Origin: Deltaproteobacteria bacterium | GTDB lineage: Bacteria; Desulfobacterota; Desulfobacteria; Desulfobacterales; QNYZ01 | Direction: 5' to 3' | Length of the DNA: 64,000 nt | NCBI GenBank assembly: GCA_003973265.1 | Contig: QNYZ01000094.1 | Location: 1,804 to 65,803 of the forward strand | Part shown: piece after piece, positions 7,877 through 56,080 of the stretch | How the letters are laid out: each line of letters begins with the position of its first letter | Numbering within the stretch: position 1 is the stretch's first letter | Program-made: the position numbers and the translations under genes | The notes under the pieces: generated by a model | Told to the model about the DNA's origin: nothing | Databases searched by the model: none | Seen by the model: only the letters and a program-made list of their open reading frames with translations

Positions 7877-7889
7877 AGGAACGATGCCG

Positions 7890-17271: not shown

Positions 17272-17324
17272 TGCTACTTCTGGTCTAAATCCCGGATTCA
17301 GGAATTTGCGGTAACGGTTGTATT

Positions 17325-19627: not shown

Positions 19628-19643
19628 TCCGGACACGTTTGAG

Positions 19644-27059: not shown

Positions 27060-27131
27060 TGGCGCATCCCTGACCGCTCGTCACAAATACATATGCTTTC
27101 CGCCATTAATTACCGATTACCGGGTAATCGC

Positions 27132-29304: not shown

Positions 29305-29916
29305 CTATTGTTGATCCCGATACCCTGCTATCAGCTCGCGTACGTTTTTTTTATGCGCATAATAGATGATCCCGGCGGTTAAAAGGGTGCCCGCCACCGC
29401 CATGCCATCTGTCCCGCACCGGGCCAGGGTCCCGATGGCCAGCACCATGACCATCATGAAAGATCCGATAAACGGCTGCCGCGTGGCACCGTAGGCCGTC
29501 AACCACAAAATCATGCCGATGCCGCAAGACAGAGGAGAGAGCGCCAAGACAAACCCCAGGTAGTTGGCCACGCCTTTCCCCCCCCGGAACCGGTGAAAGC
29601 AGGGGAGGCGGTTGCCGATAATCAGGCCCAGTCCGATCCAGGGTACCTGGTAAAGCGGCAGAATGCTCAGCGCGACGAAGGCCAGGCTGACGGCTTTTCC
29701 CATTTCCAGGATCAGTACCCCTACCGCCCACCCCAAACCGGCCTGACGGTAGACGTTGGTTGCGCCGGGGTTGCCGCTGAACCGGGCACGGGGATCCTCT
29801 CTGCCCAGGATCCGAAACAGGCCGATGGATACATTGATGGATCCGGCGATGTAGGCCGCGGTGAATAACAGTATAAAACGCATGGGCTTCGGCTCCGGTT
29901 TCAGGCGATAATCCAA
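29305..29916 (-). CDS. plsY: Glycerol-3-phosphate acyltransferase PlsY (acyl-phosphate dependent)
   Basis: 203-aa ORF; the likely start is the Met at 29883. Motifs AYIAGSIN and FSGNPGATNVYR are PlsY signatures, with a multi-pass membrane profile. It is the last gene of the long minus-strand lipid operon. Confidence 0.88.
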   Translation of the reverse strand: MDYRLKPEPKPMRFILLFTAAYIAGSINVSIGLFRILGREDPRARFSGNPGATNVYRQAGLGWAVGVLILEMGKAVSLAFVALSILPLYQVPWIGLGLIIGNRLPCFHRFRGGKGVANYLGFVLALSPLSCGIGMILWLTAYGATRQPFIGSFMMVMVLAIGTLARCGTDGMAVAGTLLTAGIIYYAHKKNVRELIAGYRDQQ

Positions 29917-30773
29917 TCAGGCGGACCGGTGGAGACTCCGCTGATCGGACGCATTTCGACCCCGCTGATTGCTTCAACGATTTCTCCGGAAAGAGATTCA
30001 ATCCGGATATCAAAAGACAACCGGCCGCCGGACGTCTCAAGCGGTTGGACACGGGCAGCGTATTGTTCGTCCGGGGCCGTCGGCTTGAAGATGGTTCGCT
30101 TACGAATCGCAACGGGATAGGCCACGATCCGGGCATACCGCTGGCCCCAGGCACAGGCCACGTGGAAGGCCGCATCAAGCGGGAAGGGCGATCCCAGGAT
30201 GCCGGGAGCCGGGCGCGTGGTTGCCGGGGTGCCGGCCATGCCGGTGGCATGGGTGGGGAACAGGCAGATATGGCCGGTCAGGCTCTGGAATCCCGGCCCG
30301 AAAGGGACCAGTTCACGGTAAAGCCGATCGGCGCTGACTGAAAAGCCCTCCTGGGCCGCATATAATCGCATATCCCCCGGCGGAACCGGCTGCGCCCTGG
30401 AAAGGGCGTTCGGACGCGTGCCGGGTGCGGCGAATACCGCCGATATATGTTCTTTCATCCGGGTGATGGTACCCGATCTGGAGGTAAACCGGGTAGACAG
30501 CGTCCCCCTGGTATCGCCTGTATCGGCCACAGCCTGGATGGTTATCCTGAGATCGACATCGGTGTCGTCCGCCCCGACGGGCAATAATCGCGAAAAGGCA
30601 ATATCCCGCATACGGGTAACATCCGTCTGCGGGCGATGTTTGAGCACCGTGTCAGACAGAATCCGGAGTGCTTCCACCGCAGGCAGCACCGCCTGGTATC
30701 CCAGGCGGTGGTCCCGGATATACGCAGGGATGGTATAGTTAACTGAATCGGTTATCGGGGAAAATTTTTCCAT
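29901..30773 (-). CDS. Stand-alone PKS-type double-hotdog dehydratase (PS-DH-like)
   Basis: 290-aa ORF. N-terminal HRLGYQAVLP (His...Pro of the HxxxGxxxxP box, with the Gly shifted by one position) and C-terminal LDAAFH (DxxxH/Q box). The size fits a double hotdog. Confidence 0.6.
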   Translation of the reverse strand: MEKFSPITDSVNYTIPAYIRDHRLGYQAVLPAVEALRILSDTVLKHRPQTDVTRMRDIAFSRLLPVGADDTDVDLRITIQAVADTGDTRGTLSTRFTSRSGTITRMKEHISAVFAAPGTRPNALSRAQPVPPGDMRLYAAQEGFSVSADRLYRELVPFGPGFQSLTGHICLFPTHATGMAGTPATTRPAPGILGSPFPLDAAFHVACAWGQRYARIVAYPVAIRKRTIFKPTAPDEQYAARVQPLETSGGRLSFDIRIESLSGEIVEAISGVEMRPISGVSTGPPDWIIA

Positions 30774-31231
30774 AATCGGATGGTTTTTTTATCGATGCCC
30801 ACCGGGGTTCCGGTGGTGTTGGTGGCGCAATGCCGGGTGAACCCGTTGCAGATAACCTCCCCGGTTTCCCGATGGGTGATCACATATTCAAATCGCAGGC
30901 GCACCCGTTCCATTTCTGCCGGGCGGGTATGCACAAAAATGGGATCATCATAGTAAAGCGGCGTAAAATAGTTGACGCCCATGGCGATGATCGGATAGAT
31001 AAACCCGCTTTTTTCCACTTCGCGGTACGGGTAACCGGTATCGCGCATGAGAGACGCCCGCCCCAGCTCAAAGTATCGCAGGTAGTTGGCGTGATAGACC
31101 ACCTGGGAACGGTCGGTATCGGCGTAGAGGATGCGATGGGTGCAGCGGTGCCAGAAACGACCGTCGGTCAGGTCCTTGATATAATGCGTATCGGTTTGAT
31201 CTGTTTCCGGTTGAAACGGTTTGGGTTTCAC
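30752..31231 (-). CDS. 4HBT/YbgC-type hotdog thioesterase (ApeK-like)
   Basis: 159-aa ORF. ILYADTDRSQVVYHANYLRYFELGR is the classic YbgC/4HBT active-site context. Confidence 0.8.
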   Translation of the reverse strand: MKPKPFQPETDQTDTHYIKDLTDGRFWHRCTHRILYADTDRSQVVYHANYLRYFELGRASLMRDTGYPYREVEKSGFIYPIIAMGVNYFTPLYYDDPIFVHTRPAEMERVRLRFEYVITHRETGEVICNGFTRHCATNTTGTPVGIDKKTIRLWKNFPR

Positions 31232-31232
31232 G

Positions 31233-32498
31233 TCACATTCCTTTCAAGACCAGGCAGCAGTTGGTACCGCCGAATCCGAATGCATTGGAAAGAACAAATT
31301 CGTGGGCATACCGCCGGGCCGTATGGGGCACCACGTCCACGTCGTCCAGTTCCGGATCGGGAAGATGGTTAATTGTGGGCAGAATCAGGCCGTTTCGCAT
31401 CCCCTCCACGGACAGGGCCGCTTCGATGGCGGCCGACGCCCCCAGAGAATGGCCGAGCTGGGACTTGTTGGAAGACACCGGCAATTTTTCCAGCCGCCGT
31501 CCGAAGATGTCCCGCAGACATTCAACTTCCGTTAAATCACCTTTCCGGGTAGAGGTGCCATGGGCATTAACATAACCGATATCATCCGGCGTTATCCCGG
31601 CATCATCGATGGCTTGCGCAATGGCCCGGATGATCGTTTTTTTATTGGGCAGGGTGAAATGGTAGGCATCGGATGTCCATCCCACGCCGGCTACCTCGGC
31701 CAGCGGCGTCAATCCCCAGGTCTTTACCATCTCTTCGGCCGCCAAAGTCAGGACGCCGCACCCTTCGGACAATACGATCCCCCTGCGATCAATGGAAAAC
31801 GGCCGGCAGGCCTGCCGGGGATCATCCCAGGCCCGGTCTTTGGGGCCGATACTGATGGTGGCCAGCATATTGGCAAATCCCTGGACAATTTCCGGTACCA
31901 GGCAGGTATCCACGCCGCCGGTCAGGGCAAAGTCGCAATCGCCATCCCGGATCATGCGGGCGCCCATGGCAATGGCATGGTTACCCGAGGCGCAGGCCCC
32001 CTGGGGCGAGATGACCGGGCCGGTAAATCCCAGGGCCATCCCGGCTTTTCCGGCCGGCACATTGGCGCAGAGATTGGGCAGCAGGTAGGGGCTGACCTTG
32101 AAAGGTCCCTTGTTGACATAATTGTCCATGGCCACCCGGAAGGCATCGGTGCCGTTCAGGGCCGATCCGATCAGGCAGGCCGTGCGGGGGCCGGTCTCCG
32201 GGGTGATCTCAAGCCCGGAATCTGCCAGGGCCTGCTGGCAGATCGCCATGGTCAGGATGACGAAATCCGCGTTCCAGTTGTAGGCCTCCTTGCGGTCGAC
32301 AAAATCGTAGTCCAGGGGATCCCAGTCCGGAATTTCGCCGACCACGTTGCTGCGGGTCTGGACCTCGCAGCGACTGATTTTTCTAAAACCTGATTCGCCC
32401 CTGACTGCCCGGTCCCAGGTTTTCCGGAAGGTATTTCCCAAAGCCGTGGCCGCGCCGTAACCGACCACGAATACGCGCCTGTTTAATGGTGGTTTCAT
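31233..32498 (-). CDS. Beta-ketoacyl-ACP synthase (FabF/FabB-type KS)
   Basis: 421-aa ORF with the Cys-His-His triad contexts GACASGNHA, NAHGTSTRKGD and LGHSLGASAAIE. Confidence 0.9.
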   Translation of the reverse strand: MKPPLNRRVFVVGYGAATALGNTFRKTWDRAVRGESGFRKISRCEVQTRSNVVGEIPDWDPLDYDFVDRKEAYNWNADFVILTMAICQQALADSGLEITPETGPRTACLIGSALNGTDAFRVAMDNYVNKGPFKVSPYLLPNLCANVPAGKAGMALGFTGPVISPQGACASGNHAIAMGARMIRDGDCDFALTGGVDTCLVPEIVQGFANMLATISIGPKDRAWDDPRQACRPFSIDRRGIVLSEGCGVLTLAAEEMVKTWGLTPLAEVAGVGWTSDAYHFTLPNKKTIIRAIAQAIDDAGITPDDIGYVNAHGTSTRKGDLTEVECLRDIFGRRLEKLPVSSNKSQLGHSLGASAAIEAALSVEGMRNGLILPTINHLPDPELDDVDVVPHTARRYAHEFVLSNAFGFGGTNCCLVLKGM

Positions 32499-32577
32499 GT
32501 ACGTTCAGTCTGTTATGTCTACCTGTAAGCCTGTCAATCCGTATCGGTTGTTTAGCCGGATGGCGGGCAGGTTGCGT

Positions 32578-33831
32578 CTATGCGTTTATTTTCTGAAAGA
32601 CGGCGCAGGAATTACAGCCGCCGAAGCCAAAAGCATTTTTTAACACAAATTCCTGCTCAAGTCGACGGGGACCTTCGGAAACGCAATCGATGGGAAGCGC
32701 GGGGTCTTCGGTGTAGTTGATGGTGGGAATCAGCGTCCGGTTGATCATTCCCATGATGGTAAACACCGATTCAATGGCACTTGATGCGCCCATGGCATGG
32801 CCGATCAGCGATTTATTGGCCGTCACCGGCGGGATCCGGCCAGGGAAATTTTCGGCCAGGGCATCGTATTCCACCCGGTCGCCGACGCGGGTGGAGGCGG
32901 CATGCGCGTTAACGGCGTCGATCTGCCGGGCCTCGATCCGGGCATCGGCGAGGCTTTCCTTGATGCAGCGGCTCACCGTGGCCAGATTGGGCGCCACAAA
33001 ATGATGGGCATCCGAGGTCATGGCATATCCGGCCAGGGCGATTTTCGGATCCAGGCCGTGGGCCCGGGAAAATTCGTGGGAGCAGAGAACGATGGCGGCC
33101 GCACCTTCGGAAATCACGAACCCCCTCCGGTCAACGGAAAAGGGCCGGCTGGCCCGATGGGGTGGCTCGGCTTTCAGGCCGGGTTTGGGATTAAAGGCGC
33201 CGTTCATGGTGAAAAACCCGGCCACGATCGGCTCGACCAGGGCGAAATCAACGGCGCCGCAGATCACGACATCGGCCATCCCCTGCCTGATCAGCATGGC
33301 GCCCGTAATGATCGAGGTCAATCCCGTGGCACAGGCCGTAATGGTCGAGAGAATCGGCCCGGTGGCGCCGGTCAGTATCGAGACCTTGCCGCCCACCATG
33401 TTGATGCATGAATTGGGATTGGTAAACGGATGGGGCAGTTTATGCTCGGCGATCATCCTTCGGTCGGCTGCAAGCACCGCGTCCTGACCGCCCACAGCCG
33501 AGCTGAACGTAATGGCCACCCGGGGTGCCAGGGTTGAATCAATTTCGATGCCACTGTGATTCAAGGCCCGATGCACCGTCAACAGGGCATGTGGGAAAAC
33601 CGGCGATGTCCAGTGGGCCATGGCCCGGGGGGAAAGAAAGGGGTAGGGAGCCGGGTCGAAATCCGGTACCTGTCCGGCGATACGGACGGGAAAATCATCG
33701 GCCAGCGGAAAACGGGTCAGGGGGCCGATCCCGCTTTTCCCTTCAAGCGCCCGCTCCCATTGCGCCGACAATTCGGTTCCCAAAGGGGATACGGTATCGA
33801 ACCCGGCGATAACGGCGGTTTTTGAATTCAT
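32578..33831 (-). CDS. Beta-ketoacyl-ACP synthase (second KS, divergent)
   Basis: 417-aa ORF. TACATGLTS (Cys present), NAHAASTRVGD (HAAST instead of HGTST) and IGHAMGASSAIE. Confidence 0.85.
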   Translation of the reverse strand: MNSKTAVIAGFDTVSPLGTELSAQWERALEGKSGIGPLTRFPLADDFPVRIAGQVPDFDPAPYPFLSPRAMAHWTSPVFPHALLTVHRALNHSGIEIDSTLAPRVAITFSSAVGGQDAVLAADRRMIAEHKLPHPFTNPNSCINMVGGKVSILTGATGPILSTITACATGLTSIITGAMLIRQGMADVVICGAVDFALVEPIVAGFFTMNGAFNPKPGLKAEPPHRASRPFSVDRRGFVISEGAAAIVLCSHEFSRAHGLDPKIALAGYAMTSDAHHFVAPNLATVSRCIKESLADARIEARQIDAVNAHAASTRVGDRVEYDALAENFPGRIPPVTANKSLIGHAMGASSAIESVFTIMGMINRTLIPTINYTEDPALPIDCVSEGPRRLEQEFVLKNAFGFGGCNSCAVFQKINA

Positions 33832-33876
33832 CGGATGTCATTTCACGGCGTCAGGACAGCCGCGGGTCCCTCTGTT

Positions 33877-34875
33877 TTACCAGGGAATGAAGCGATACAG
33901 CTTGGCGAACATCTCGTAGACTTCAATCCAGTTCTGAAAATCCTCAGCCGACCGCATGTGGGCACGTTTGTTGACCATGACCCAGCTCATGTGGGCGGCG
34001 CCGTCTTTGCAGGTGCGGCAGTCCCGGGTTTCCGACGTGCAGCAGCGGTGAGTAGTGGTTAGATCCGAGGCCCAGCGGACAAAGTGAATCAGGCGTTTGG
34101 GCTGCGGATCACGGTTATCGAACGATTCGGTCACCGACGGGCATTCGTTCCAGCCAAATGGGCGGCCGAGCATTTTACCCGTGGTAATGATTTTATGGTA
34201 GTACTTGGAAGAAATGACCGTATCCGGGTAGCGGTCGAGCATATCATCCATTTCCGCCCGGATGTCGATCAGTTCTTCAGGCTGCCAGGAAAAGCCGTCC
34301 ACATCTTCATCATTGGATAAAAGCTGCATGTGAACCTTGACGCCGATATCGCGGATTTTACGAACGATTCCTTCGGTTTTGCCGATCTGCCGGGGGGTAA
34401 TGGTATAGAGGTAATAGGTATACGCATCACCGGCATAATTTTTACTGGAAATGGCAAAGGTATCCCTGCCGCGAAGCTGAATCTCATCTTCTTCGGTTCC
34501 CCACAGGGAAATACCGACCATCAGGTCGGGAAAGCGGTCCCGTGGTACCTTGATCAGGCCGTTGGTGGCGCAAAAGGTGGGGATACGCTGATAAAACGCA
34601 TCGACCCGGTCCAGGCTGAGGCTCGGTTCGCCGCCGATGAGGATGGCCAGGTTGACGCCGCGGGCTTTTTCCTTATCGATAAAGGCTTCCCATCTGGTCA
34701 GGTCTCTTTCCTCGTCGGCGACTTTGTCCTCATCGGAAGAAAAAAAGAAGCACCCCTTGCAGCGCAGGTTGCAACGGTTATTCACATCGTAAATGGAACT
34801 GCGGATATTGAGTTTCGAAATCCGTTTATATCGGTTGTACCAGTCTTCGTTTAATAGGGAACTAATTGTTTTCAT
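33877..34875 (-). CDS. Radical SAM enzyme with a C-terminal Cys-rich (auxiliary-cluster-like) motif
   Basis: 332-aa ORF. CNLRCKGC is the CxxxCxxC motif. C-terminal CCTSETRDCRTC. Paralogous to the next gene. Confidence 0.8.
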   Translation of the reverse strand: MKTISSLLNEDWYNRYKRISKLNIRSSIYDVNNRCNLRCKGCFFFSSDEDKVADEERDLTRWEAFIDKEKARGVNLAILIGGEPSLSLDRVDAFYQRIPTFCATNGLIKVPRDRFPDLMVGISLWGTEEDEIQLRGRDTFAISSKNYAGDAYTYYLYTITPRQIGKTEGIVRKIRDIGVKVHMQLLSNDEDVDGFSWQPEELIDIRAEMDDMLDRYPDTVISSKYYHKIITTGKMLGRPFGWNECPSVTESFDNRDPQPKRLIHFVRWASDLTTTHRCCTSETRDCRTCKDGAAHMSWVMVNKRAHMRSAEDFQNWIEVYEMFAKLYRFIPW

Positions 34876-34923
34876 TTAAAATACTCCAAATAATCAACCT
34901 GTTACGGGTAAGATCCGGGCCTG

Positions 34924-36051
34924 TCAGGCCGGGTTGCGGCCCGGCGGCGGCACAAGATGATGGCAAAGGTTGGTGCCCTTGGAATAATCCGCTACCCAGA
35001 CGGCCAGGTAGGTATCGACATAATCGAGCCAGGCTTTAAAGGTGGCCGAACTGGCGGCATGGCGAAAGAGCCGCGCGGTGACCACGGCGCTTCCGGCAGC
35101 ATAATGCCGGCAATCATCACAATCCGTATCCGGTACGCAGCAGGCGGCCTGGCGGTCCCAGGTCAGATCGGACCGATACTGGCGGAAAGACCGGCCCAGC
35201 CCGATGGTTTTGGAGGGATTCCGGCGGGGATACGAGCAGCCGTACAGGCTATGCAGACCCAGTGTGTGGGTATGGGCAACGGTATTGTACGGCGAGTAAA
35301 TGATATGCCGGGGATAGTCGTTTATCAGGGCCGACATGGTGCTTCGCATATGGGCCAGTGAATCCGGAGTATGCCGCAGATGTCCCTGATAGCCGACTGG
35401 CGCGGAAAAAACGTTAAAGGTCACCTTGAAGTTGTTTTTTACCAGTGTCCGGATTACCTCGCGGCTTTCATCGATATTTTCACGGGTGAATGTGTAGACG
35501 ATTATCGCGCGGGGGTCATCCCGGTAATTCTCCATCTGTTTTTTCAAAAGATCCGCGGCATGTCGAACCCGGCGGCTGGTCTGATCGTTTCCCCATACGG
35601 AAATATGAATTTTGTAACCGACGGATGTGGGAATCGGCTGAACGCCGTTGGTGGCGATGGCGCCCAGCGGAATGACATCTGAACAGACCTGGCAGAGTTC
35701 GGGAACCAGGGAGGGTTCCGCCCCGGCCAGGACCGCGTAGGTAATCCCTCTCTCTTTTTCAGCGGTCATATGCCGGCGCCAGGCATCCGGGTCGGAATTA
35801 TTTTCGGCGTATTGTTTCTCGCCTTCATAAAAATAGCAGCCGTCGCAGCGGATATTGCAACGGCTGGTCATGTCGTAGGTCGATTCTCTCAGGAAAAAAT
35901 ATCGGCGCACCTTTTCCCACCGCTCCCGCACGGCAGGGTCCGATAAAATATCGGAAAATCGGGTGGTTCCGGTTGAAGCGGATGAATCCGGCTTTGACAC
36001 CGGTTTCGACTCGGGGCTCTTTTCCGCCTGGTTGAGGACAAGGGTTTTCAC
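34924..36051 (-). CDS. Radical SAM enzyme with a C-terminal Cys-rich motif (paralog of 33877-34875)
   Basis: 375-aa ORF. CNIRCDGC is the CxxxCxxC motif. C-terminal CCVPDTDCDDC. Confidence 0.8.
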   Translation of the reverse strand: MKTLVLNQAEKSPESKPVSKPDSSASTGTTRFSDILSDPAVRERWEKVRRYFFLRESTYDMTSRCNIRCDGCYFYEGEKQYAENNSDPDAWRRHMTAEKERGITYAVLAGAEPSLVPELCQVCSDVIPLGAIATNGVQPIPTSVGYKIHISVWGNDQTSRRVRHAADLLKKQMENYRDDPRAIIVYTFTRENIDESREVIRTLVKNNFKVTFNVFSAPVGYQGHLRHTPDSLAHMRSTMSALINDYPRHIIYSPYNTVAHTHTLGLHSLYGCSYPRRNPSKTIGLGRSFRQYRSDLTWDRQAACCVPDTDCDDCRHYAAGSAVVTARLFRHAASSATFKAWLDYVDTYLAVWVADYSKGTNLCHHLVPPPGRNPA

Positions 36052-36060
36052 GGGAAACCT

Positions 36061-36324
36061 CTATTTAATTCGCTGCCCGACGTAATCAGCGATCAATCGA
36101 ATCGTCGTCAGTTTCGGGTAGTCATCTTCGTCGATGTGAATGGCATATTCGTCCTGCAATACCAGCGCCACCGTGGCCAGATCCATGCTGTCGATACCGA
36201 TCTCATCAATGAGATCCACGTCCGCGTCAAATGTTTCCGGGGTTACGTCTTCCAGTTTCAGTTCGTTGATCATCACCTCCGCTACGCGTCGGATGATGGC
36301 ATCGCCGTCGATCTTGTTTGTCAT
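36061..36324 (-). CDS. Acyl carrier protein
   Basis: 87-aa ORF with IGIDSMDLATV (DSxD phosphopantetheine Ser context). Confidence 0.88.
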   Translation of the reverse strand: MTNKIDGDAIIRRVAEVMINELKLEDVTPETFDADVDLIDEIGIDSMDLATVALVLQDEYAIHIDEDDYPKLTTIRLIADYVGQRIK

Positions 36325-36357
36325 GCTATGGTCTCCAAGGGTTTCATATTATTGTGT

Positions 36358-36780: not shown

Positions 36781-38117
36781 AGTGGCCCGCTGAATCCCTG
36801 CTGGTACAGTTTTGGCAGAGCGGTTGCCGACAGATCTTCGCCATTGGTGAAGATCCAGTTCCGGTGATGTTCAGCATGTGAATGAATGTGGCGAATGATC
36901 CGATCCGGGGAAATCCCCGGCGGGCGATAGAAAACGGGATCAAGCAGGCTCTGCCCCGGAGAAATCTGTCCCTGTCGGCATGCCAGGTCGTACAGGGGCG
37001 TGTGGGGATAAATCCGCATGCCGCAGAAGATGAAGATGACCGTCTGTTTAAATGCGTCGAGCGCTGTTAACGTCTCTTCAAGACTGTCGATGGTTTCGCC
37101 CGGGCCACCAAGCAGAATATAATGAGCGACGTATAACCCGGCGGCCACGGCCCGTTGGTGGGCAATCTGCACATCTTCTGCCTTAAATGGTTTTCCATAC
37201 GCTTTCAATACCCGGTTGCAGAGCGATTCGGTTCCGAATTCAACATGGGTCAGTCCGGCCTCGGCCAGCAGCCTGAAATATCCCCTGGGGGGGACGATGG
37301 GCGCAAAGAACCCGCCCCAGGGGACATGGATTCCCGAACGGATAAACGCCCGTGCCACTTCGGCGCTGTGTGTCATGTCTGCGTTGAAAGCCGAGTCGGT
37401 GATAAAAAGGTATCTGGCCCCGGCCTCGACGAGGCGGGCGGCCGTGCCGGCGACTTCGGCCGGGGGGATCAACCGCATCCGGCGCCCTTCAATATAGGGA
37501 TAGGTGCAATAGACGCATCGAAAGGGACAGCCCCGCTTGGTCTGCAGGTTCAACATGCCGCCGTGTTCCAGGTAGTACCGGTGATGACCATCGGCTGCAG
37601 TGACCGTCCGCTGGATATTGCCGCTCAAGGGCGGGGGCATCCGGCCTGGTGTGCCGGGGAGAATGACTCCCGGAATCTGACCAGGGATCCGGGCCGGGGC
37701 CGTGCCGGCTTCGATGGCGTCTAACAGCTGCAGCAGCCGTTCCCCTTCACCGATAATGCCGAAATCAGCCTTGAGTTCGGTGAGAATTTCATCGGGAAAG
37801 AGGGTAAATCCACTTCCTCCCAAAACAAGCGGCACATCGGTCAATTGCCGGATATGATGACACAGGTTGCGGTGGTCATTGATGAATGTTTGTGGATTTT
37901 CAATATCCGTATTGTCCACATTGCGCAGAGATACCCCGATCAAGTCCGGTTTGAAAGCACGGATAAGGGTGGATAAATCGTCGTTCGTTGTCAGGTTGAT
38001 GTCGGCAATGCGCACCTCATGCCGATGGGCAATGGCCCCGGCTACATAATCAAGACCCACCGGGTAGACCGGAAAGGGGATGGTCATCGGGTTGGCGGAG
38101 ATGAGCAGGACTTTCAT
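36759..38117 (-). CDS. B12-binding-domain radical SAM enzyme (class B)
   Basis: 452-aa ORF. The N-terminal MKVLLISANP...PVGLDYVAGAI is a Rossmann-like cobalamin-binding domain layout, followed by KRGCPFRCVYCTYP (CxxxCxxC). The start directly abuts the KS-CLF stop (TAG at 38120-38118, ATG at 38117). Confidence 0.8.
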   Translation of the reverse strand: MKVLLISANPMTIPFPVYPVGLDYVAGAIAHRHEVRIADINLTTNDDLSTLIRAFKPDLIGVSLRNVDNTDIENPQTFINDHRNLCHHIRQLTDVPLVLGGSGFTLFPDEILTELKADFGIIGEGERLLQLLDAIEAGTAPARIPGQIPGVILPGTPGRMPPPLSGNIQRTVTAADGHHRYYLEHGGMLNLQTKRGCPFRCVYCTYPYIEGRRMRLIPPAEVAGTAARLVEAGARYLFITDSAFNADMTHSAEVARAFIRSGIHVPWGGFFAPIVPPRGYFRLLAEAGLTHVEFGTESLCNRVLKAYGKPFKAEDVQIAHQRAVAAGLYVAHYILLGGPGETIDSLEETLTALDAFKQTVIFIFCGMRIYPHTPLYDLACRQGQISPGQSLLDPVFYRPPGISPDRIIRHIHSHAEHHRNWIFTNGEDLSATALPKLYQQGFSGPLWEYLRK

Positions 38118-40310
38118 CTATGGGCTCACCAAGATAGCAGAAACAGAGGCTCCCAGTCCGAGAATCAGGATGCCCCGCCCGCCCAGATCAACGGAGCCGG
38201 TCCCGGTCAGGGCGGATGGAACGACCTGATCTTGAACCAGGGTGACGGCCAGGGAGGTGGCCACGGCCGATGCCGTGGCAAATTCCCCGGTAAATGAGCG
38301 GTACGGGATACCGGGTACCTGGCGGTTTATCGCGCTGAAAAATTGCTTAAGTTGCATATTACCTAATGAGTCATAACATTTAGGAATACCATATAATATA
38401 GCGCTGTACTTATCGGAAAGTGAATGCCGGCCATCCAGGGCGGCTGCCAGTCTGGATATGATTTCCGGGTTTTCCCCGTTTTCTTCGGTCCGCGCGTAAA
38501 AAAGAGAGTGAAGGGAGGGCTGCCCGGGCAGTTTTCCATCCTGCAGACAAAATGCCCCGCCCCCGTCCGCCGGCACCCTTGCCAACCGGCAGGATCGATC
38601 AAAAAGCGGTGAATAGTCCGGGTGAAATTCATCGGCACCGATCACGATACACGGCGGGTCACCATCCCGGGCCAGCAGCGACGCGGTGAAGAGTGCCTGC
38701 TCAAATGAATAATCTCCACCGGTCAGGGTCAGATTCGGACCCGTGGCCTTAAAAAAGATCGCGGCCTGTCCGGCCGGGGCATTGTGGACCGAACCGCTGA
38801 AGTCGATGGGGCTGGCAAAGCGCTGGTCAGATTCAAACAACTGGGTCAGAAACCGATGGGTCTCCGTCAATGCGCCCCATCCGGTTCCCAGAAAAACCGA
38901 TTGAGGGCTAGCGGGGGCGGCCTTACGCCGGATCGTTTCGCAAAGCGACAACACCATGCGGGGCATCCGTTTTAACCGGCGAAGCGTTGCGGGCGGCAGA
39001 CCGGCGGAAAGGGCGGCTGAAGAGAGTTGCCCGGCCATGGATTGACCCCGGCGAAAGCATTCTGCGGTCGCATCCGTATTTCCTGCACCGGTCCGGCAGG
39101 CATGGGCCAGGATAGAGAGCGCGCGGGGAAAATGAGCGGTCTTAACAGGGTTTCCACTGCCGATTTGCCCCAGGACGGCGGCGGCGTTGTTTCCGCCAAA
39201 CCCCAGGGAATTGACCAGGGCGCGTCGTACCGGCTGGTGAACCGGCGTTTCAACCGGGCAGAGTGGAAGACGGGTATCCGGCTCAACCAGGCCGGTATTG
39301 GCCGGTACCAGGCCGTGGCGGATGGATAAAGCCGATACGACGGCGCCCACGGCCCCGGCCGCAGCCAGGCTGTGGCCGGTACTTCCCTTAATGGAAGACA
39401 CCGCCGGTATCCGGTGGGAAAACAATCGGTCGATGGCCACAGATTCGGCGGCGTCGTTATCTACCGTGCCGGTGCCGTGAAGGTGGATATAATCGATCGG
39501 GTCCCTGATCCGGCTCATGGATATGCCCGCATCGGTCAGGGCGGCGGACATGGCTGCCAGCGCTCCGTCTCCCCGGGGGTGGGGCGCCGTGGGGTGATAT
39601 GCATCGCAGGAGAGTCCGGCCCCGAGAAGCTCGGCCACGGCATTTTCTGGAACGGTTTGGGATGATTCCAAGAGAAGCATGGCGGCCGCTTCAGCCACCG
39701 CCATGCCATGCCGGTGGCGGTCGAAAGGCCTGGGCCCTGTCGGGTCGATGAGCTGCAGGGCGTTAAAACCATAATACGTCAACCGGCACAGTGCGTCCAC
39801 GCCGCCGGCCAAAACGCGGGTGGCCCTGCCGGAGCGGAGGAGTTCCAGCGCAATTTTAAAGGTTGCCGTCCCAGATGAACAGGCCGTCGAGACGGTCAGT
39901 ACCGGCCCCCGGCAGCCCAGGATGATCGCCAGATGATCGCCCACCGAGCCGGTGGCATGAAAACGATAGGCATCCGGGTCGTCGATTCCGGCCATGAGCC
40001 CTTTCTCCGTATCCGGCATGCCGCCCGTGGTGCTGCCGATAACAATGGCGTCCGGCGGCCGGTTGTGGCCACTGAGCGCTTCTCTGGCGGCGATTAATGC
40101 GAGCTGATGGGTGCGTGGGAGACGGGCATCGCGGCTGATCGGTTCGCCGATCTGTCCCACCGGCAGCGGGGTGCCGTGGAGAACGGGGAAAAGGGAAAGC
40201 GGGCTGATTTTTTTGTCATCGCGGGTGATGGCCGAAAGCGTGGCGGCGCATCCGATACCGAGCGGACTGATGATCCCCATCCCGGTAATATACACTTGCG
40301 GATACTTCAA
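38118..40310 (-). CDS. Fused ketosynthase / chain-length-factor-like protein (KS-CLF)
   Basis: 730-aa ORF with a TTG start overlapping the ACP stop (TTGA at 40307-40310). The N-terminal half is a KS with TACSSGTAT, HLHGTGT and STGHSLAAAG. The C-terminal roughly 300 aa is thiolase-fold-like but has TGGDYSFEQAL where the nucleophile Cys should be. Confidence 0.8.
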   Translation of the reverse strand: MKYPQVYITGMGIISPLGIGCAATLSAITRDDKKISPLSLFPVLHGTPLPVGQIGEPISRDARLPRTHQLALIAAREALSGHNRPPDAIVIGSTTGGMPDTEKGLMAGIDDPDAYRFHATGSVGDHLAIILGCRGPVLTVSTACSSGTATFKIALELLRSGRATRVLAGGVDALCRLTYYGFNALQLIDPTGPRPFDRHRHGMAVAEAAAMLLLESSQTVPENAVAELLGAGLSCDAYHPTAPHPRGDGALAAMSAALTDAGISMSRIRDPIDYIHLHGTGTVDNDAAESVAIDRLFSHRIPAVSSIKGSTGHSLAAAGAVGAVVSALSIRHGLVPANTGLVEPDTRLPLCPVETPVHQPVRRALVNSLGFGGNNAAAVLGQIGSGNPVKTAHFPRALSILAHACRTGAGNTDATAECFRRGQSMAGQLSSAALSAGLPPATLRRLKRMPRMVLSLCETIRRKAAPASPQSVFLGTGWGALTETHRFLTQLFESDQRFASPIDFSGSVHNAPAGQAAIFFKATGPNLTLTGGDYSFEQALFTASLLARDGDPPCIVIGADEFHPDYSPLFDRSCRLARVPADGGGAFCLQDGKLPGQPSLHSLFYARTEENGENPEIISRLAAALDGRHSLSDKYSAILYGIPKCYDSLGNMQLKQFFSAINRQVPGIPYRSFTGEFATASAVATSLAVTLVQDQVVPSALTGTGSVDLGGRGILILGLGASVSAILVSP

Positions 40311-40573
40311 CGCGTCTTTTCCACCCGGTTTTCATTGATAAAACCGGCCAGCGCGCCAAGGGAGGCAAACACTTTTGTGCCCAGTTCCTGATTGTCGATG
40401 AGGACGCCATAATCTTTTTCCACCATCATCACCAGTTCGAGGACATCGATGGAATCAATTCCGAGTTTTCCACCGATCAGCGGCTCGTCAGCGGCGATAT
40501 CATCCGGTGTTACATCCACTAGGTCAAGGGCGTCGATGATTTTGATCTGGAGTTCTTTGATCAGGTTTTCCAT
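40307..40573 (-). CDS. Acyl carrier protein
   Basis: 88-aa ORF with LGIDSIDVLEL. It is the first gene of the minus-strand operon. Confidence 0.88.
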   Translation of the reverse strand: MENLIKELQIKIIDALDLVDVTPDDIAADEPLIGGKLGIDSIDVLELVMMVEKDYGVLIDNQELGTKVFASLGALAGFINENRVEKTR

Positions 40574-40727
40574 ATAAATTCCCTTATTGTCGTTGCCGGC
40601 ATTGCGTTCCGCCTGGCGGAAGTGTCCTTTACAACGCCCGGCAAATCAGGTTATAGATGAATGGATAAACTATGCCAATTTTGCGATTTGGCGTCAACTA
40701 TCAATCTCTTTTTAGCGAAACCTCAAT

Positions 40728-41159
40728 ATGCTGCAAGACGATATCCGCATTGAAGATTTAATCCCTCACCGGGATCGGATGAAACTGGTGGATGAGATCC
40801 TGGCCGTGGATGACACCACCGCCGTTACCCTGTCGGTGGTGTCTGAAAAATGGCCGACAGCCGGAGGAGGCGGTGCGTGCGCGGTGACACTGGTGGAGCT
40901 GGTGGCCCAGACGGCCGGTATCTGTATCGGCTGGCGGGAATTACGAAAACATGGCAATACCAAAGGCGGCAGGGGGTGGCTGGTGGGGATTAAAAAGGCC
41001 GTTTTTATGAAAGACCCGATTCCGCTGGGTGCCAGGGTGGTTACGTCTGCAGAGAAAAAATTCAGTTTCGAGGGGCTGTCCGAGATTACGGGTACCGTTC
41101 GTATCGGGGAGGACCCGATTGCGGACGTCACGCTTCAAGTGGTACAGGAAGAGGATTAA
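40728..41159 (+). CDS. Hotdog-fold dehydratase (ApeP-like)
   Basis: 143-aa ORF. LIPHRDRMKLVDEIL matches the N-terminal signature of aryl polyene cluster dehydratases. Confidence 0.7.
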   Translation: MLQDDIRIEDLIPHRDRMKLVDEILAVDDTTAVTLSVVSEKWPTAGGGGACAVTLVELVAQTAGICIGWRELRKHGNTKGGRGWLVGIKKAVFMKDPIPLGARVVTSAEKKFSFEGLSEITGTVRIGEDPIADVTLQVVQEED

Positions 41160-41207
41160 AAGATAAATTAAACAAATAGTTATATAAAAAACATCAAGGA
41201 GTAGGTT

Positions 41208-41945
41208 ATGGAGCAATCCCATGATATTGAGGTCGCCATCGTCACCGGTGCCAGCGGGGGAATCGGCCGGGCCATTGCGATTGCACTGGCCAAAGCGGGC
41301 TATTATGTGGTCGTCAATTATCGATCCAGTCAAGGTGGTGCCGAAAAAACCCTGGCGCAGATTACGCAGGATGGCGGGCGGGGTGAATTGCAGGGATTTG
41401 ACGTCACCGATGCCGACCAGACCAAGGCGGCCCTGGACGATCTGTTCTCGCGGTACAAGGGGATCGATGTGCTGGTGAACAATGCCGGAATCACCCACGA
41501 CGGGCTGTTTATGATGATGTCCAAAAAAGCCTGGCAGCAGGTTCTGGATACAACCCTGGCCGGGTTCTACAATGTGACCAAGCCGGTGCTGAAAAAGATG
41601 GTTCGCCGCAAAAAAGGGTCCGTGGTCTCGATCTCTTCCATTGCCGGGTTGATCGGAAACCGGGGCCAGGCCAATTATTCGGCGGCCAAGGCCGGTTTGA
41701 TCGGTGCCAGCCGCTCGCTGGCTGCCGAAGTGGCCCGGCTGGGCATCCGGGTCAACGTGGTGGCCCCCGGCCTGATCGATACGGAAATGATCAAGGATGT
41801 GCCCCTGAGCGCGCTGAAAAATATGATTCCCATGGCCCGCATCGGAAAACCGGAAGAGGTGGCCAGCGTGGTCCGTTTTCTCTGCTCGGACGATGCCTCG
41901 TATGTGACCGGCCAGGTGGTTTCCGTTAATGGCGGCATGGCCTGA
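41208..41945 (+). CDS. fabG: 3-oxoacyl-ACP reductase (SDR; ApeQ-like)
   Basis: 245-aa ORF. TGASGGIGRAIA, NNAG, YSAAK (YxxxK), and the C-terminal YVTGQVVSVNGG typical of FabG. Confidence 0.9.
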   Translation: MEQSHDIEVAIVTGASGGIGRAIAIALAKAGYYVVVNYRSSQGGAEKTLAQITQDGGRGELQGFDVTDADQTKAALDDLFSRYKGIDVLVNNAGITHDGLFMMMSKKAWQQVLDTTLAGFYNVTKPVLKKMVRRKKGSVVSISSIAGLIGNRGQANYSAAKAGLIGASRSLAAEVARLGIRVNVVAPGLIDTEMIKDVPLSALKNMIPMARIGKPEEVASVVRFLCSDDASYVTGQVVSVNGGMA

Positions 41946-42606
41946 GCCGGTGAGACCGGGGATCATTATCTGGATCAAACGGATACTTCGCAGCCATCGC
42001 TGTCACCGGGTATTTCCGGGGACGATCCTTGCGCTGCTGGTGCTGATCTGTGCCGGGTGGACAAAGAGCTGGACATCGATCCAGGCCGCGGCTGAAAAAA
42101 TTGAATCGATCCAGGCGGATTTTGTCCAGGAAAAGCACCTTCCGTTTCTGGTGAAACCGCTGGAATCCACGGGGCGGTTCTATTTCAAGCGTCCGGGATC
42201 GGTTCGCTGGGAATACGTCTCACCGTTGAAAAGTATCCTGGTGTCCCATCAGGGAAATACCCGGCGGCTGGTGGAAGAAAACGGGGCATGGATTGAAGAT
42301 GTCGGGGTGAAAATGGCGGGGATGCAGGTGGTCATGACCCAGATCAGCCAATGGATGTCCGGCCGGTTTACCGACAGTACGGATTTTGATGCCAGGATCG
42401 CAGACGATGGCAAAGTGGTGCTGACCCCTGGAAATAAAGCCCTCTCCCGGATGATCCGGCGCATTGAGCTGACGCTTTCCGACCGTCCGGGGGTGGTGGA
42501 TTCGGTGAAGGTGATTGAAGGCGACGATGCCTATACCGTATGGGCCTTTAAAAATATCCAGACCAATAAACCCTTCAAACCCACCCTGTTTACCGTGGTG
42601 CCATGA
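41929..42606 (+). CDS. LolA-like outer-membrane lipoprotein-carrier family protein (ApeL-like)
   Basis: 225-aa ORF with an N-terminal TM/signal segment, then QADFVQEKHLPFLVKPLESTGRFYFKRPGSVRWEY, a LolA-family pattern. ATGA overlap with the next gene at 42603-42606. Confidence 0.65.
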   Translation: MAAWPEPVRPGIIIWIKRILRSHRCHRVFPGTILALLVLICAGWTKSWTSIQAAAEKIESIQADFVQEKHLPFLVKPLESTGRFYFKRPGSVRWEYVSPLKSILVSHQGNTRRLVEENGAWIEDVGVKMAGMQVVMTQISQWMSGRFTDSTDFDARIADDGKVVLTPGNKALSRMIRRIELTLSDRPGVVDSVKVIEGDDAYTVWAFKNIQTNKPFKPTLFTVVP

Positions 42607-43283
42607 GCCGGTTTTCCTGGTTGATCATCTGCCTGTTCTGCCTGGGCGGCTGTACCGGCATACCGCGGATGGTCCCGCTGTATCCGCTTGAAACGATATT
42701 AGAAAAACCGGATTGCCGGCAGCCGTTCGCAAAAAATCAGTGGCAGTTTGTCCACACGATACGCATGGAAACGGGCAGGAAGGCTTCGTTTTTCAGCGGC
42801 GTCATCACGGTTGATCCGGCTGCGGAATCGGTACGCTGCACGCTTCTTACCCTGGAAGGCCTGGTCCTGTTTGATGCCCGCCTGACCAGGGGGAAACCGG
42901 AGGTGATAAAGGCGGTCCCGCCCTTTGACCGACCGGCGCTGGCCACCGGTATATTGACTGATGTCGGGCTGATATTTTTATCCCCCGCCGGGCCGCCTGA
43001 AACCGGCCGGACCGGGAGCGGAGATATTGTCTGCCGGTTCGGCGCACCGCAACAGGGCATCGTGGAAGTCGTTCCCGCCCGTGACCGGTCGGACCGATCC
43101 TGGCAGATCCGGAAGTATGACGAAAACGGCCGGGTGGTCCGCGAAGTGGTGACAGGAACGTCGGGTCGCTGGGAAGGGGCAGAGACCCTTTTTATTCCCG
43201 ATACATTTACCTTGACGGCCACGGGAAGCCGTGGCTATCGTCTGCATTTCCGGTGTCTGTCATCCACACGAATCGGCTTATAA
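42603..43283 (+). CDS. Lipoprotein, DUF3261-like (ApeN-like)
   Basis: 226-aa ORF. Signal peptide with lipobox LGGC (MSRFSWLIICLFCLGGCTG). The position after the LolA-like gene matches the aryl polyene cluster order. The family assignment rests on context. Confidence 0.5.
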   Translation: MSRFSWLIICLFCLGGCTGIPRMVPLYPLETILEKPDCRQPFAKNQWQFVHTIRMETGRKASFFSGVITVDPAAESVRCTLLTLEGLVLFDARLTRGKPEVIKAVPPFDRPALATGILTDVGLIFLSPAGPPETGRTGSGDIVCRFGAPQQGIVEVVPARDRSDRSWQIRKYDENGRVVREVVTGTSGRWEGAETLFIPDTFTLTATGSRGYRLHFRCLSSTRIGL

Positions 43284-43351
43284 GTTAAGCATCGCACCGG
43301 CCTGACAGAGATCGTAAACATAAAGCGGTAAGGAAGGAATCAAGTAACTCA

Positions 43352-44614
43352 ATGAAATTTTATCTGATATATCCCAAGTGGCCCAAACTGACCGGTCAAA
43401 CCGAGTTTCACCTGCCGCCCCACGGCCCGGTGGTATTTGCGGCGGCCCTGCCCGATGATGTGGATATCGAATTTGTCGATGAAAACCTTCAGGAAATTGA
43501 TTTTGACGTCACTGCCGATCTGGTGGGGATTTCCGTCATGTTGACCAGCCAGATCCAGCGCGGCTGGGAAATTGCCGATACGTTTCGGGCCAGAGGGACA
43601 ACCGTGATTTTTGGCGGGATTGCCGCCATGCTTCATGCCGAAGAGACCATGGCCCATGCCGATGCGGTTTTTGTCGGCGAGGCAGAAGGCCGCATGGAAG
43701 CACTGCTTGATGATTTCAATAATAACCGGCTGAAAAAATTATATAATTATCTTGATGATCAGCCGCCCGTGGAACTCATCGGACCGGCCCGCCGGGATAT
43801 TTTAAACCGGGACCTGTATAATTACCGGGGCATTCAGATGGTCGACCTGATGCATGCATCAAGGGGATGCCGGTTTAATTGCTACCCGTGTGCGGTGGCC
43901 TACCTGGGCGGGCGTAAATTTCGGCCGCGCCCCATCGACATCGTGATTGAAGAAATGGCCGGTATTGACAATAACCGGTTATTTATCGTGGACAATTCCC
44001 TGGCGCAGAGTACGAAATGGGAAAAAGAGCTGTTTCGGGCCATGATCCCGTTGAAAAAAAACTGGTGCAGCCATCCCATTGAAGATGATCCCGAAGTCCT
44101 TGACCTGGCGGCCCGGGCCGGGGCCTGGTATGTCTACCAGGCGGTGTTTGACACCTCGGATTTAATCCGGGACCGGATTAAACGCTATCACGATCATGGT
44201 ATTGCCGTGGAAGGTACGATCCTGCTGGGGCTTGACGAACATACCGAAGAGAGCATCAATCGCCTGATTGATTTCCTCCTGGAGGTCGATCTGGATCTGG
44301 CCGAATTTACGATTTTAACGCCCTTTCCCCATACGCGGGCCTTTCGGGATCTTGAAAAGCAGGGCCGGATTTTAACCCATGACTGGAAAAAGTATACGGC
44401 GGATCAGGTGGTGTATCAACCGAGACATATCTCGCCGGACCGGCTCCAGGAGCTGTTTCATCATGCCTGGGATTCTTTTTATAAAGATGAATCTCAGCAC
44501 ATGAAAATGTTCAAGCTCTTTAAGCGGGTCATGGAACGGGAGATGGCCAGCAATACCTATCGGCCGAGACAGCGAAACAAGGCGGACCGGGTTTTTGGCC
44601 GGAAAAAAGCCTGA
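43352..44614 (+). CDS. B12-binding-domain radical SAM enzyme (class B, second copy)
   Basis: 420-aa ORF. N-terminal cobalamin-binding-like domain (MKFYLIYPKW...GISVMLTSQ), then ASRGCRFNCYPC (CxxxCxxC). Confidence 0.78.
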   Translation: MKFYLIYPKWPKLTGQTEFHLPPHGPVVFAAALPDDVDIEFVDENLQEIDFDVTADLVGISVMLTSQIQRGWEIADTFRARGTTVIFGGIAAMLHAEETMAHADAVFVGEAEGRMEALLDDFNNNRLKKLYNYLDDQPPVELIGPARRDILNRDLYNYRGIQMVDLMHASRGCRFNCYPCAVAYLGGRKFRPRPIDIVIEEMAGIDNNRLFIVDNSLAQSTKWEKELFRAMIPLKKNWCSHPIEDDPEVLDLAARAGAWYVYQAVFDTSDLIRDRIKRYHDHGIAVEGTILLGLDEHTEESINRLIDFLLEVDLDLAEFTILTPFPHTRAFRDLEKQGRILTHDWKKYTADQVVYQPRHISPDRLQELFHHAWDSFYKDESQHMKMFKLFKRVMEREMASNTYRPRQRNKADRVFGRKKA

Positions 44615-56078: not shown

Positions 56079-56080
56079 GG

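Follow-up and report, generated by a model that had tools for sequence, protein, structure and literature searches.

A radical SAM-rich, aryl polyene-like gene cluster of a Desulfobacterales-type bacterium, a further member of an uncharacterised "ladderane-like" class with a probable role in envelope lipid formation

The aryl polyene lipid (APEL) is a glycerol-phosphate-GalNAc lipid which carries an aryl polyene (APE) and a conjugated C26:5 fatty acid; ApeD and ApeJ attach its chains, which are made on two acyl carrier proteins (ACPs), and export proceeds through ApeM, the LolA-like ApeL and the DUF3261 protein ApeN. The core set of the APE clusters (Grammbitter et al.) consists of ketosynthases (KS; apeO/R), ACPs (apeE/F), a chain-length factor (CLF; apeC), dehydratases (apeI/P), a ketoreductase (apeQ) and an RND/MMPL transporter (apeM). 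Rattray et al. (2009) described the genes kuste3335-3352 of Kuenenia stuttgartiensis and counterparts in Desulfotalea psychrophila and Geobacter, where unusual genes of the Kuenenia and Desulfotalea loci encode a glycosyltransferase, a phytoene desaturase, S-adenosylmethionine (SAM) methylases, a phenylacetyl-CoA ligase, a deacetylase-like protein and two adjacent radical SAM proteins following FabZ-ACP-FabG. The anammox-specific Cluster I (kustE3603-3608), reported to be exclusive to ladderane producers, comprises amxACP, amxFabZ, amxFabF2, amxFabFmut, a phytoene-dehydrogenase-like protein and a B12-radical SAM protein. Biosynthetic gene clusters (BGCs) annotated as ladderane by antiSMASH in Desulfobacterota, Myxococcota and other phyla are expressed, transcribed in anoxic waters and of unknown function; ladderane biosynthesis itself is still unsolved according to a review of August 2026, and radical SAM chemistry on ketoacyl (fatty-acid-type) chains has been proposed only for ladderanes and the Jaw5 product (2026 review). 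In this article we analyse a cluster of 17 genes, four of them coding for radical SAM proteins, at positions 29305-44614 of a 64,000-nucleotide stretch (the window; positions 1,804 to 65,803 of contig QNYZ01000094.1, assembly GCA_003973265.1) of a deltaproteobacterium placed in the Desulfobacterales.

The first B12-binding radical SAM protein of the cluster (B12-rSAM1) is a member of TIGR04072, the NCBIfam family "lipid biosynthesis B12-binding/radical SAM protein" with the model name rSAM_ladder_B12: it scored 386.4 bits at an equivalog cutoff of 360 (E 1.5e-115), with residues 2-450 aligned to positions 1-441 of the 443 of the model. When this protein served as anchor in a GTDB scan with one genome per species, at least 588 species with a relative were found, and the cassette is colinear with all 17 genes in a 78-kb ENA contig and, apart from a missing PlsY gene, in Desulfosarcina ovata (AP021876.1). 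Based on the TIGR04072 membership, the colinearity with D. ovata and the number of species with relatives, the cluster is a member of a known, uncharacterised "ladderane-like" class which has been noticed since 2009, and not of a new class. The original prediction, made from the sequence alone, took the architecture as undescribed and "rebuilt", and this part has to be given up, since ladderane-labelled BGCs had also been reported in Desulfobacterota already. It named the anammox and deltaproteobacterial clusters as the closest precedent, in agreement with Rattray et al. (2009), and the product as unknown, which stands too: the literature searched on ladderanes, radical SAM enzymes, aryl polyenes and TIGR04072 yielded hypotheses and a negative expression study only, with no product assigned to the class.

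It was established that the gene content, the TIGR04072 membership of one B12-radical SAM protein and the conservation and synteny of all parts of the locus are real; with moderate confidence, we read it as an envelope-lipid biosynthesis and export system of APEL-like build with additional radical SAM tailoring in a Desulfobacterales-type host. All 17 predicted genes were recovered at their coordinates with the expected domains by open reading frame (ORF) listing, Pfam and NCBIfam, some of the domain scores being weak. They are, together with the region that separates the two operons:

29305-29916, minus strand: cluster-specific PlsY-family paralog (Pfam G3P_acyltransf 1.3e-33, 116.8 bits)
29901-30773, minus strand: double-hotdog dehydratase of polyketide synthase (PKS) type (Pfam PS-DH 2.2e-10)
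30752-31231, minus strand: YbgC/4HBT thioesterase (TIGR00051 84 bits, cutoff 68.7; 58-79% identity in relatives)
31233-32498, minus strand: FabF-like ketosynthase B (Cys-His-His intact; relatives 62-83% identical)
32578-33831, minus strand: FabF-like ketosynthase A (Cys-His-His triad intact)
33877-34875, minus strand: radical SAM protein of 332 amino acids (CxxxCxxC; C-terminal CCx6CxxC)
34924-36051, minus strand: radical SAM protein of 375 amino acids (CxxxCxxC; paralog of the 332-residue protein)
36061-36324, minus strand: acyl carrier protein 2, ACP2 (Pfam PP-binding; always directly before the radical SAM pair)
36358-36780, minus strand: FabZ/ApeI-like single-hotdog dehydratase (Pfam FabA 6.6e-10, ApeI-like 1e-5)
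36759-38117, minus strand: B12-binding radical SAM protein 1, B12-rSAM1 (TIGR04072 member)
38118-40310, minus strand: fusion of a KS and a CLF-like protein, 730 amino acids, equivalent to ApeO + ApeC (ketoacyl-synt, Ketoacyl-synt_C, Ketoacyl-synt_2 (PF13723))
40307-40573, minus strand: acyl carrier protein 1, ACP1 (PRK09184 72.9 bits, cutoff 70)
40574-40727, no strand: divergent intergenic region between the two operons (from the coordinates)
40728-41159, plus strand: ApeP/FabZ-like dehydratase (ApeP-like 17.4 bits, cutoff 27; homologues carry PF22817)
41208-41945, plus strand: FabG, 3-oxoacyl-ACP reductase close to flexirubin FlxB (NF004200 306 bits, cutoff 273)
41929-42606, plus strand: LolA-like carrier, ApeL-like (Pfam LolA 5.8e-19; LolA2_flexi 110 bits, cutoff 125)
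42603-43283, plus strand: lipobox lipoprotein, putative divergent member of the DUF3261 (ApeN/LolB-like) family (lipobox LGGC, Cys17 invariant in the family)
43352-44614, plus strand: second B12-binding radical SAM protein, B12-rSAM2 (Pfam B12-binding and Radical_SAM)

Domains and motifs thus bear out an APE-like type II fatty acid synthase/PKS set combined with four radical SAM genes. By their coordinates the minus-strand genes overlap by 4-22 nt or are separated by at most 79 nt, and the plus-strand gaps do not exceed 68 nt. In the divergent region one sigma-70-like match was detected (minus strand, 40697-40669); like all results of the promoter and terminator scan it is a match at consensus level only, and no riboswitches or other RNA elements were found near the cluster. 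In the KS-CLF fusion the Cys-His-His residues are kept in the N-terminal half and the C-terminal half is without the active-site Cys; its best matches in the PDB are 9s5h_B, 6qsp and the ishigamide KS 6kxd (KS half, 9.5e-45), and no conclusion is drawn from 9s5h, the top match of the KS half, whose identity was unconfirmed from the anammox FabF preprint. The ApeI-like match of the dehydratase at 36358-36780 reached 26.2 bits (cutoff 28.5) and its homologues carry PF22818; FabG scored 305 bits against the FlxB model (cutoff 340). The lipoprotein itself has no Pfam match, and DUF3261 was matched by four of 13 members of its family (best E 6.4e-5). Precomputed Pfam annotation of homologues backs the ApeP-like, ApeI-like and small radical SAM assignments that are weak in the window copy. 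The PlsY-family protein combines its strong Pfam match with a TIGR00023 score of 88.5 bits, below the equivalog cutoff of 137.2, and is therefore taken as a divergent paralog and not as the housekeeping enzyme.

Conservation of the cassette was followed by tblastn of the window proteins against the best 80 of the at least 588 genome loci; fractions over 53 refer to the loci with enough downstream flank, and individual loci are given by their L numbers. The best 80 belong mostly to Desulfobacterales, Smithella/Syntrophaceae and Desulfatiglandales, with Leptospirales and Spirochaetes metagenome-assembled genomes (MAGs) in addition, and most of the cassette is present in them; the nearest relatives of every cluster gene are from Desulfobacterales, Syntrophales and Spirochaetota. 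The cassette is colinear in D. ovata, in L002 and in a 96%-identical relative (L083), and the shared core order is ACP1 - [KS-CLF] - B12-rSAM1 - dehydratase - ACP2 - 375-residue radical SAM - 332-residue radical SAM - KS - KS - thioesterase - PS-DH - (PlsY). Both small radical SAM genes lie next to the ACP2 and KS genes in 47 of 53 loci, PlsY is kept at the cluster end in 26/53, and the KS-CLF fusion and B12-rSAM2 are retained in 33 and 29 of 54, respectively; PS-DH is fused to a phosphopantetheinyl transferase (ACPS) in D. ovata and in a Spirochaetes MAG (L081). The gene set 4HBT - dehydratase - ACP - radical SAM - radical SAM - KS, which stands alone in Desulfonema limicola, appears from these comparisons to be the irreducible unit. 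Since relatives keep the radical SAM genes in strict synteny with the KS/ACP genes, as the original prediction had required, chance adjacency can be rejected, and judged by gene order this is a real, strongly conserved cluster of sulfate-reducer-type bacteria and not a local accident; carriers in culture include D. ovata, D. widdelii and Desulfonema limicola. Smithella-type loci have FabA, a flavin-reductase-rubredoxin fusion, a 139-residue membrane protein and a polysaccharide deacetylase in place of the APE-like genes (Smithella/Syntrophaceae examples are L042 4545-5237, L021 2360-2950 and L072 9208-9627; the membrane protein has no Pfam family), and the flavin-reductase-rubredoxin fusion may supply electrons to the radical SAM enzymes.

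CxxxCxxC is present in all four radical SAM proteins, two of which have an N-terminal B12-binding domain. B12-rSAM1 (PF02310 4.4e-17, PF04055 5.9e-19, motif CPFRCVYC) has 2991 database relatives, the named ones being from Desulfosarcina, Smithella and other Desulfobacterota, and the source names of its homologues agree with TIGR04072. Its closest solved structure is TsrM (6wte, 2.2e-43), a tryptophan C2-methyltransferase, followed by AprD4, CysS, OxsB and TokK. B12-rSAM2 (65-85% identity among relatives) reached no NCBIfam model above cutoff and no curated family, and gave a weak match to AprD4 only. The 375- and 332-residue proteins are paralogs with 29% identity and a common C-terminal CCx6CxxC, in which no SPASM/twitch signature was recognised; with Pfam scores of 27.6 and 28.3 bits, just under the cutoff of 29.5, neither passes any Pfam or NCBIfam family cutoff. 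The 332-residue protein is the most conserved one of the cluster, always 332 residues long and, across different orders, 73-91% identical in 64 loci. Among 1.84 billion representatives at 50% identity it had 458 matches at E <= 1e-3; its orthologues make up one full-length cluster at 50% identity, beyond which the closest relatives stand at 29-38% identity. Profile and fold searches matched only distant auxiliary-cluster enzymes (SkfB 3.6e-7, GDGT-MAS 2.8e-3, CteB/SuiB with TM-scores of about 0.45). Its AlphaFold2 (AF2) model has a pLDDT of 71.6 with disordered Fe-S loops, and Foldseek returned a generic radical SAM core, so that the structure search is not informative beyond a putative "auxiliary-cluster type". 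No source checked gave a functional name for it, and no anammox orthologue appeared by name in the 50%-cluster search or among the named cluster members. On sequence grounds the two small radical SAM proteins are thus a small family without a characterised member. In a Blastocatellia MAG (L086 7325-11627), a 36%-identical relative of the 332-residue protein has a PaaA/PaaC-like gene on one side and genes for an AMP-ligase, a SnoaL-like protein and a carrier protein on the other, which hints that the wider family may generally act on carrier-bound substrates; the gene context of a relative in Ponticaulis is unrelated. Housekeeping radical SAM families can be rejected for the cluster, as TIGR04072 was the sole NCBIfam family above cutoff and homologue searches pointed to no housekeeping family, in line with the original prediction.

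The original boundaries, 29305-44614, proved to be incomplete, because an upstream operon of the minus strand and the link from fatty-acid kinase (Fak) to PlsY which it offers had been missed:

19644-20720, minus strand: lysophospholipid/lipid-A-type acyltransferase, ApeD-like (Pfam Lip_A_acyltrans 7.7e-17)
20516-23215, minus strand: MMPL/RND-type transporter, ApeM-like (Pfam MMPL; weak HpnN/HAE3; start probably near 23030)
23035-23784, minus strand: family-2 glycosyltransferase (GT2) with an ApeJ-like role (Pfam Glycos_transf_2 6.6e-20; best NCBIfam match PpgS-like, below cutoff)
23781-25541, minus strand: fatty-acid kinase fusion of Dak2 (FakA N-terminal), FakA-like_M and DegV (FakB-type, fatty-acid-binding) (Pfam)
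25538-26008, minus strand: second 4HBT-fold thioesterase (TE2), translationally coupled to the Fak fusion (Pfam 4HBT_2)

The acyltransferase probably starts near 20510, as its ORF overlaps the MMPL gene; in the Fak fusion the NCBIfam DegV domain scored 130 bits (cutoff 99.7) and the YloV N-terminal part was also matched. A metagenome scan with the fusion gave 26 loci, in which the order TE - Fak - GT2 - (MMPL - acyltransferase) is constant: TE2 precedes Fak wherever upstream sequence exists (about 20 of the 26), GT2 follows Fak in L088-L093, L104 and L106, MMPL is syntenic in L013, L051, L073, L088-L093, L099, L101 and L107, and acyltransferase homologues adjoin the cluster in L038, L039, L047, L058, L091, L099 and L101. 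Several loci, among them L091 and D. ovata, encode the MMPL protein as a fusion with a SAM methyltransferase. In L091, L092 and L094 the Fak unit directly follows ApeP-like - FabG - LolA - lipoprotein - B12-rSAM2; the same junction is present in L108 and L110, whose contigs end inside the Fak gene. L050 and the Spirochaetes MAG have TE2 and the Fak fusion next to the radical SAM core. The window order uvrD - DUF4388 - TE - Fak - GT2 - MMPL is repeated in L088 (UvrD 84% identical). Judged from this gene order, the upstream genes at 19644-26008 are part of the system. A stretch of low GC content (16000-20000; 0.44-0.45 compared with about 0.56 elsewhere) directly borders the enlarged cluster on its acyltransferase side; a tRNA (16255-16329), an NhaA antiporter and two ORFs with no family or just a cytidylate-kinase-like fold were found in it.

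Compared with the APE/APEL and flexirubin clusters (ape of E. coli CFT073 and Xenorhabdus doucetiae, flx of Flavobacteria), the window has in common the two ACPs, the KS with a PF13723 CLF, the ApeI/ApeP-type dehydratase pair, the FabG-type ketoreductase, the 4HBT thioesterase, the Lip_A-type acyltransferase, GT2, the MMPL/RND pump, the LolA-like protein and, as a candidate, the DUF3261-like lipoprotein. Every type of gene in the APE core set was found, the ApeI/ApeP-like matches being below the Pfam cutoff and the MMPL gene lying about 6 kb beyond 29305, where it is syntenic in other loci; counterparts of ApeD, ApeJ, ApeM and ApeL are all present, with the lipoprotein as a putative counterpart of ApeN, and the curated flexirubin models (FlxB, LolA2) were narrowly missed by the window FabG and LolA. 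The locus differs in that its KS and CLF are fused and in that it adds four radical SAM genes, two extra FabF-like KS, PS-DH, the PlsY paralog and the FakA-DegV fusion. It also lacks an aryl-activating ligase, an ammonia or chorismate lyase and a SAM methyltransferase, which relatives do have. No genes for aryl starter supply or activation and no ring methyltransferase (ApeB) were seen among the annotated window ORFs, and tblastn with the ammonia-lyase, AMP-ligase and methyltransferase domains of related loci found no match in the window, as had been predicted. The idea that the radical SAM genes took the place of aryl priming is weakened, however: an aromatic amino-acid ammonia-lyase (PF00221, 1e-150) is encoded between B12-rSAM2 and the thioesterase in L050 (3102-4649), L091 (7921-9540), L092, L094, L108 and L110, five related loci carry AMP-ligases, and SAM methyltransferases occur as well. 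Genes for aryl priming accordingly belong to the pan-cluster, and the starter may be supplied in trans in this organism.

The likeness to the clusters of Rattray et al. lies in the succession FabZ - ACP - (FabG) - two adjacent radical SAM - several FabF paralogs - second ACP; the window order at 36780-31233 fits the published gene list, with FabZ-ACP beside two non-B12 radical SAM genes and FabF paralogs, and by gene order only the small radical SAM pair is a candidate orthologue of kuste3342/3343. Glycosyltransferase, ligase, deacetylase, SAM methyltransferase and phytoene-desaturase-like genes recur in this pan-cluster, whereas the window is without phytoene-desaturase-like, deacetylase, SAM-methyltransferase and phenylacetyl-CoA-ligase genes and adds the LolA/lipoprotein/B12-rSAM2 operon and the Fak/MMPL operon. 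The Spirochaetes MAG combines the radical SAM core with a phytoene-desaturase-like flavoprotein and a polysaccharide-deacetylase-SAM-methyltransferase fusion (8526-9992, 11329-12804), a gene content like that of kuste3335-3352 which suggests a lateral spread of the cassette. With Cluster I the window shares a dedicated ACP and FabZ-like dehydratase, a KS with an inactive KS-like partner and a B12-radical SAM protein, but the inactive partner is a PF13723 protein fused to KS, both stand-alone KS keep Cys-His-His instead of the mutated triad of a stand-alone FabF, and no Amino_oxidase/FAD (phytoene-dehydrogenase-like) protein was found among the window ORFs scanned. The "ladderane-type logic" of the original prediction therefore holds as a loose analogy only. 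The KS half of the fusion resembles the KS of the highly reducing type II PKS of ishigamide (Iga11/Iga12), and the small radical SAM proteins are like the SPASM/twitch enzymes that form C-S or C-C bonds (SkfB, CteB, SuiB, GDGT-MAS/Tes) in core fold and in having a Cys-rich C-terminal region, though the similarity does not go beyond the core (best E 3.6e-7; TM-score about 0.45; identity 15-17%).

In the APEL-like reading two acyl chains would be assembled on the two dedicated ACPs. The ACP1 chain would be made by the KS-CLF fusion with FabG and the ApeI/ApeP-like dehydratases, and it would be conjugated or unsaturated, given that no dedicated enoyl reductase is encoded. The original prediction had also argued for an unsaturated product from the lack of an enoyl reductase and a malonyl transacylase. 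The argument is weakened, as a housekeeping FabI could act in trans. Both functions are indeed missing from the cluster itself; the window nevertheless holds a PfaA-like acyltransferase (AT) domain and a PfaD-family enoyl reductase. These belong to a "secondary lipid" synthase of Pfa type on the minus strand (1388-9641, possibly on to 418), composed of a 2162-residue PfaA-like protein (KS-AT-ACP repeats-KR-PS-DH, where KR stands for ketoreductase) and the enoyl reductase (TIGR02814, 596 bits, cutoff 449); this second, unrelated polyunsaturated-lipid/hydrocarbon system could confound lipid phenotypes ascribed to the radical SAM cluster. The ACP2 chain would be built by the FabZ-like dehydratase and the two FabF-like ketosynthases and would be the substrate of the radical SAM pair, which has an extra C-terminal Fe-S motif and would most plausibly form a C-C bond (ring or cross-link) or remove two hydrogens. 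C-methylation is the most plausible role of the two B12-radical SAM enzymes, TsrM being the nearest solved relative of the first. After its predicted release by the 4HBT thioesterase, the acid would be converted to acyl-phosphate by the FakA-DegV fusion, and the acyl group would be transferred to glycerol-3-phosphate by the PlsY paralog; Fak produces and PlsY consumes acyl-phosphate, and this step is proposed because of such textbook family properties and the recurrent co-location of the genes. The head group would then be completed by the Lip_A-type acyltransferase and GT2, and the MMPL pump, the LolA-like protein and the DUF3261-like lipoprotein would take the lipid to the outer membrane. 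That the radical SAM pair performs an undescribed reaction on the ACP-tethered chain (ring closure, cross-linking or O2-independent desaturation), which together with two B12-dependent C-methylations would yield a lipid class new to strict anaerobes, is a tentative suggestion, to which we give less than even credence.

The main rival is that two separate pathways often stand side by side, the core making a membrane fatty acid and the KS-CLF, FabG, LolA, lipoprotein, B12-rSAM2, Fak and MMPL genes an APE-type pigment lipid. Within 10 kb of the core, the Smithella/Syntrophaceae loci carry no APE-like genes; in L091, L092 and L094, conversely, no core lies within 10 kb of the APE-like and Fak genes; and the incomplete retention of the KS-CLF fusion and B12-rSAM2 given above points the same way. 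However, in the window the KS-CLF gene is part of the core operon, where it overlaps ACP1 (40310/40307) and abuts B12-rSAM1 (38117/38118), the two sets co-occur in varied arrangements in the Desulfobacterales, L050 and the Spirochaetes MAG, and in the latter two Fak and TE2 adjoin the core itself; we consider independent pathways unlikely, though they deserve to be taken seriously. A modifier of ordinary membrane fatty acids, for instance by mid-chain C-methylation through a B12-radical SAM enzyme, with incorporation into phospholipids via PlsY, would suit the fact that B12-radical SAM enzymes are mostly C-methyltransferases (the matches include TsrM, CysS, TokK and HpnR) and the presence of PlsY and, in some loci, of PlsC-type acyltransferases. 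Mid-chain methyl fatty acids are known in Desulfobacter and anammox bacteria. Such a modifier needs no three ketosynthases, CLF, two ACPs, LolA/LolB-like pair, GT2 and MMPL pump, and we regard it as improbable, a shade more so than the desaturation route below.

Relatives to which phytoene-desaturase-like flavoproteins have been added would accord with an anaerobic route to polyunsaturated fatty acids or hydrocarbons, where the small radical SAM proteins act as O2-independent desaturases on ACP-bound chains. Some auxiliary-cluster radical SAM enzymes, such as BtrN and anSME, are dehydrogenases, which speaks for the same route. This is the hypothesis of Rattray et al., and according to the literature cited unusual polyunsaturated hydrocarbons were present in Desulfotalea psychrophila, a carrier of a syntenic cluster; that correlation comes from one organism without genetics, however, and the PfaA/PfaD-type system at 1388-9641 could explain such lipids. 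Expression in E. coli gave no new fatty acids, and the LolA, lipoprotein, glycosyltransferase and MMPL genes are left unexplained, so that anaerobic desaturation as the whole function is rather improbable. The synthesis of ladderanes or other cyclobutane lipids is suggested by the TIGR04072 membership, the NCBIfam model name and database labels, and the overlap of gene content with kuste3335-3352. In the cited literature, though, ladderanes are known from anammox Planctomycetota only and none were found in D. psychrophila, and the genes in common are, by the exclusivity of Cluster I, the non-ladderane part; because the window lacks the two defining genes, for the phytoene-desaturase-like protein and the dead-triad FabF, and the host belongs to the wrong lineage, we reject this as very improbable.

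Several observations weigh against the APEL-like reading, too. A DUF4388 gene and a uvrD-type helicase gene (26349-29108) stand between the Fak/MMPL operon and the core, and in the 96%-identical relative L083 the flank past PlsY is different and the Fak/MMPL operon is not adjacent; adjacency of the Fak unit and the core is therefore frequent, not obligatory. As the Smithella-type loci have the core with no APE-like genes nearby, the modules could work apart. The ApeI/ApeP-like and LolA2/FlxB matches of the window copy are below the curated cutoffs, the PlsY paralog below its equivalog cutoff could use another acceptor, and the reactions assigned to the radical SAM proteins are guessed from very remote relatives (TM-score about 0.45), B12-radical SAM enzymes being known to catalyse non-methylating reactions as well (AprD4 and OxsB are among the matches). 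Homologous gene sets of Kuenenia expressed in E. coli gave no new fatty acid, with the two small radical SAM proteins undetected, and a product is known for none of the members of the class.

Elsewhere in the window a futalosine-route menaquinone gene set was recognised on the minus strand at 55182-59564 (VitK2_biosynth/MqnA-like, an amidohydrolase and two CofH/MqnC-type radical SAM proteins); its MqnC/MqnE-like radical SAM genes (57268-59564) form a separate housekeeping set, unrelated to the cluster. An ORF of 416 amino acids at 51788-53038, in a neighbourhood of his and ABC-transporter genes, has an imidazoleglycerol-phosphate dehydratase domain at residues 238-374 only.

It should be emphasized that the window is a further example of this class and not its discovery. 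The class is a worthwhile experimental target because it holds three radical SAM families without a characterised member, and the same radical SAM chemistry may operate in the shared, not ladderane-specific part of the anammox lipid clusters. Identification of the product would define the enzymology of these three families, would explain the BGCs labelled "ladderane" in non-anammox bacteria and would part the shared from the truly ladderane-specific genes of the anammox lipid clusters, and a new sediment biomarker might result.

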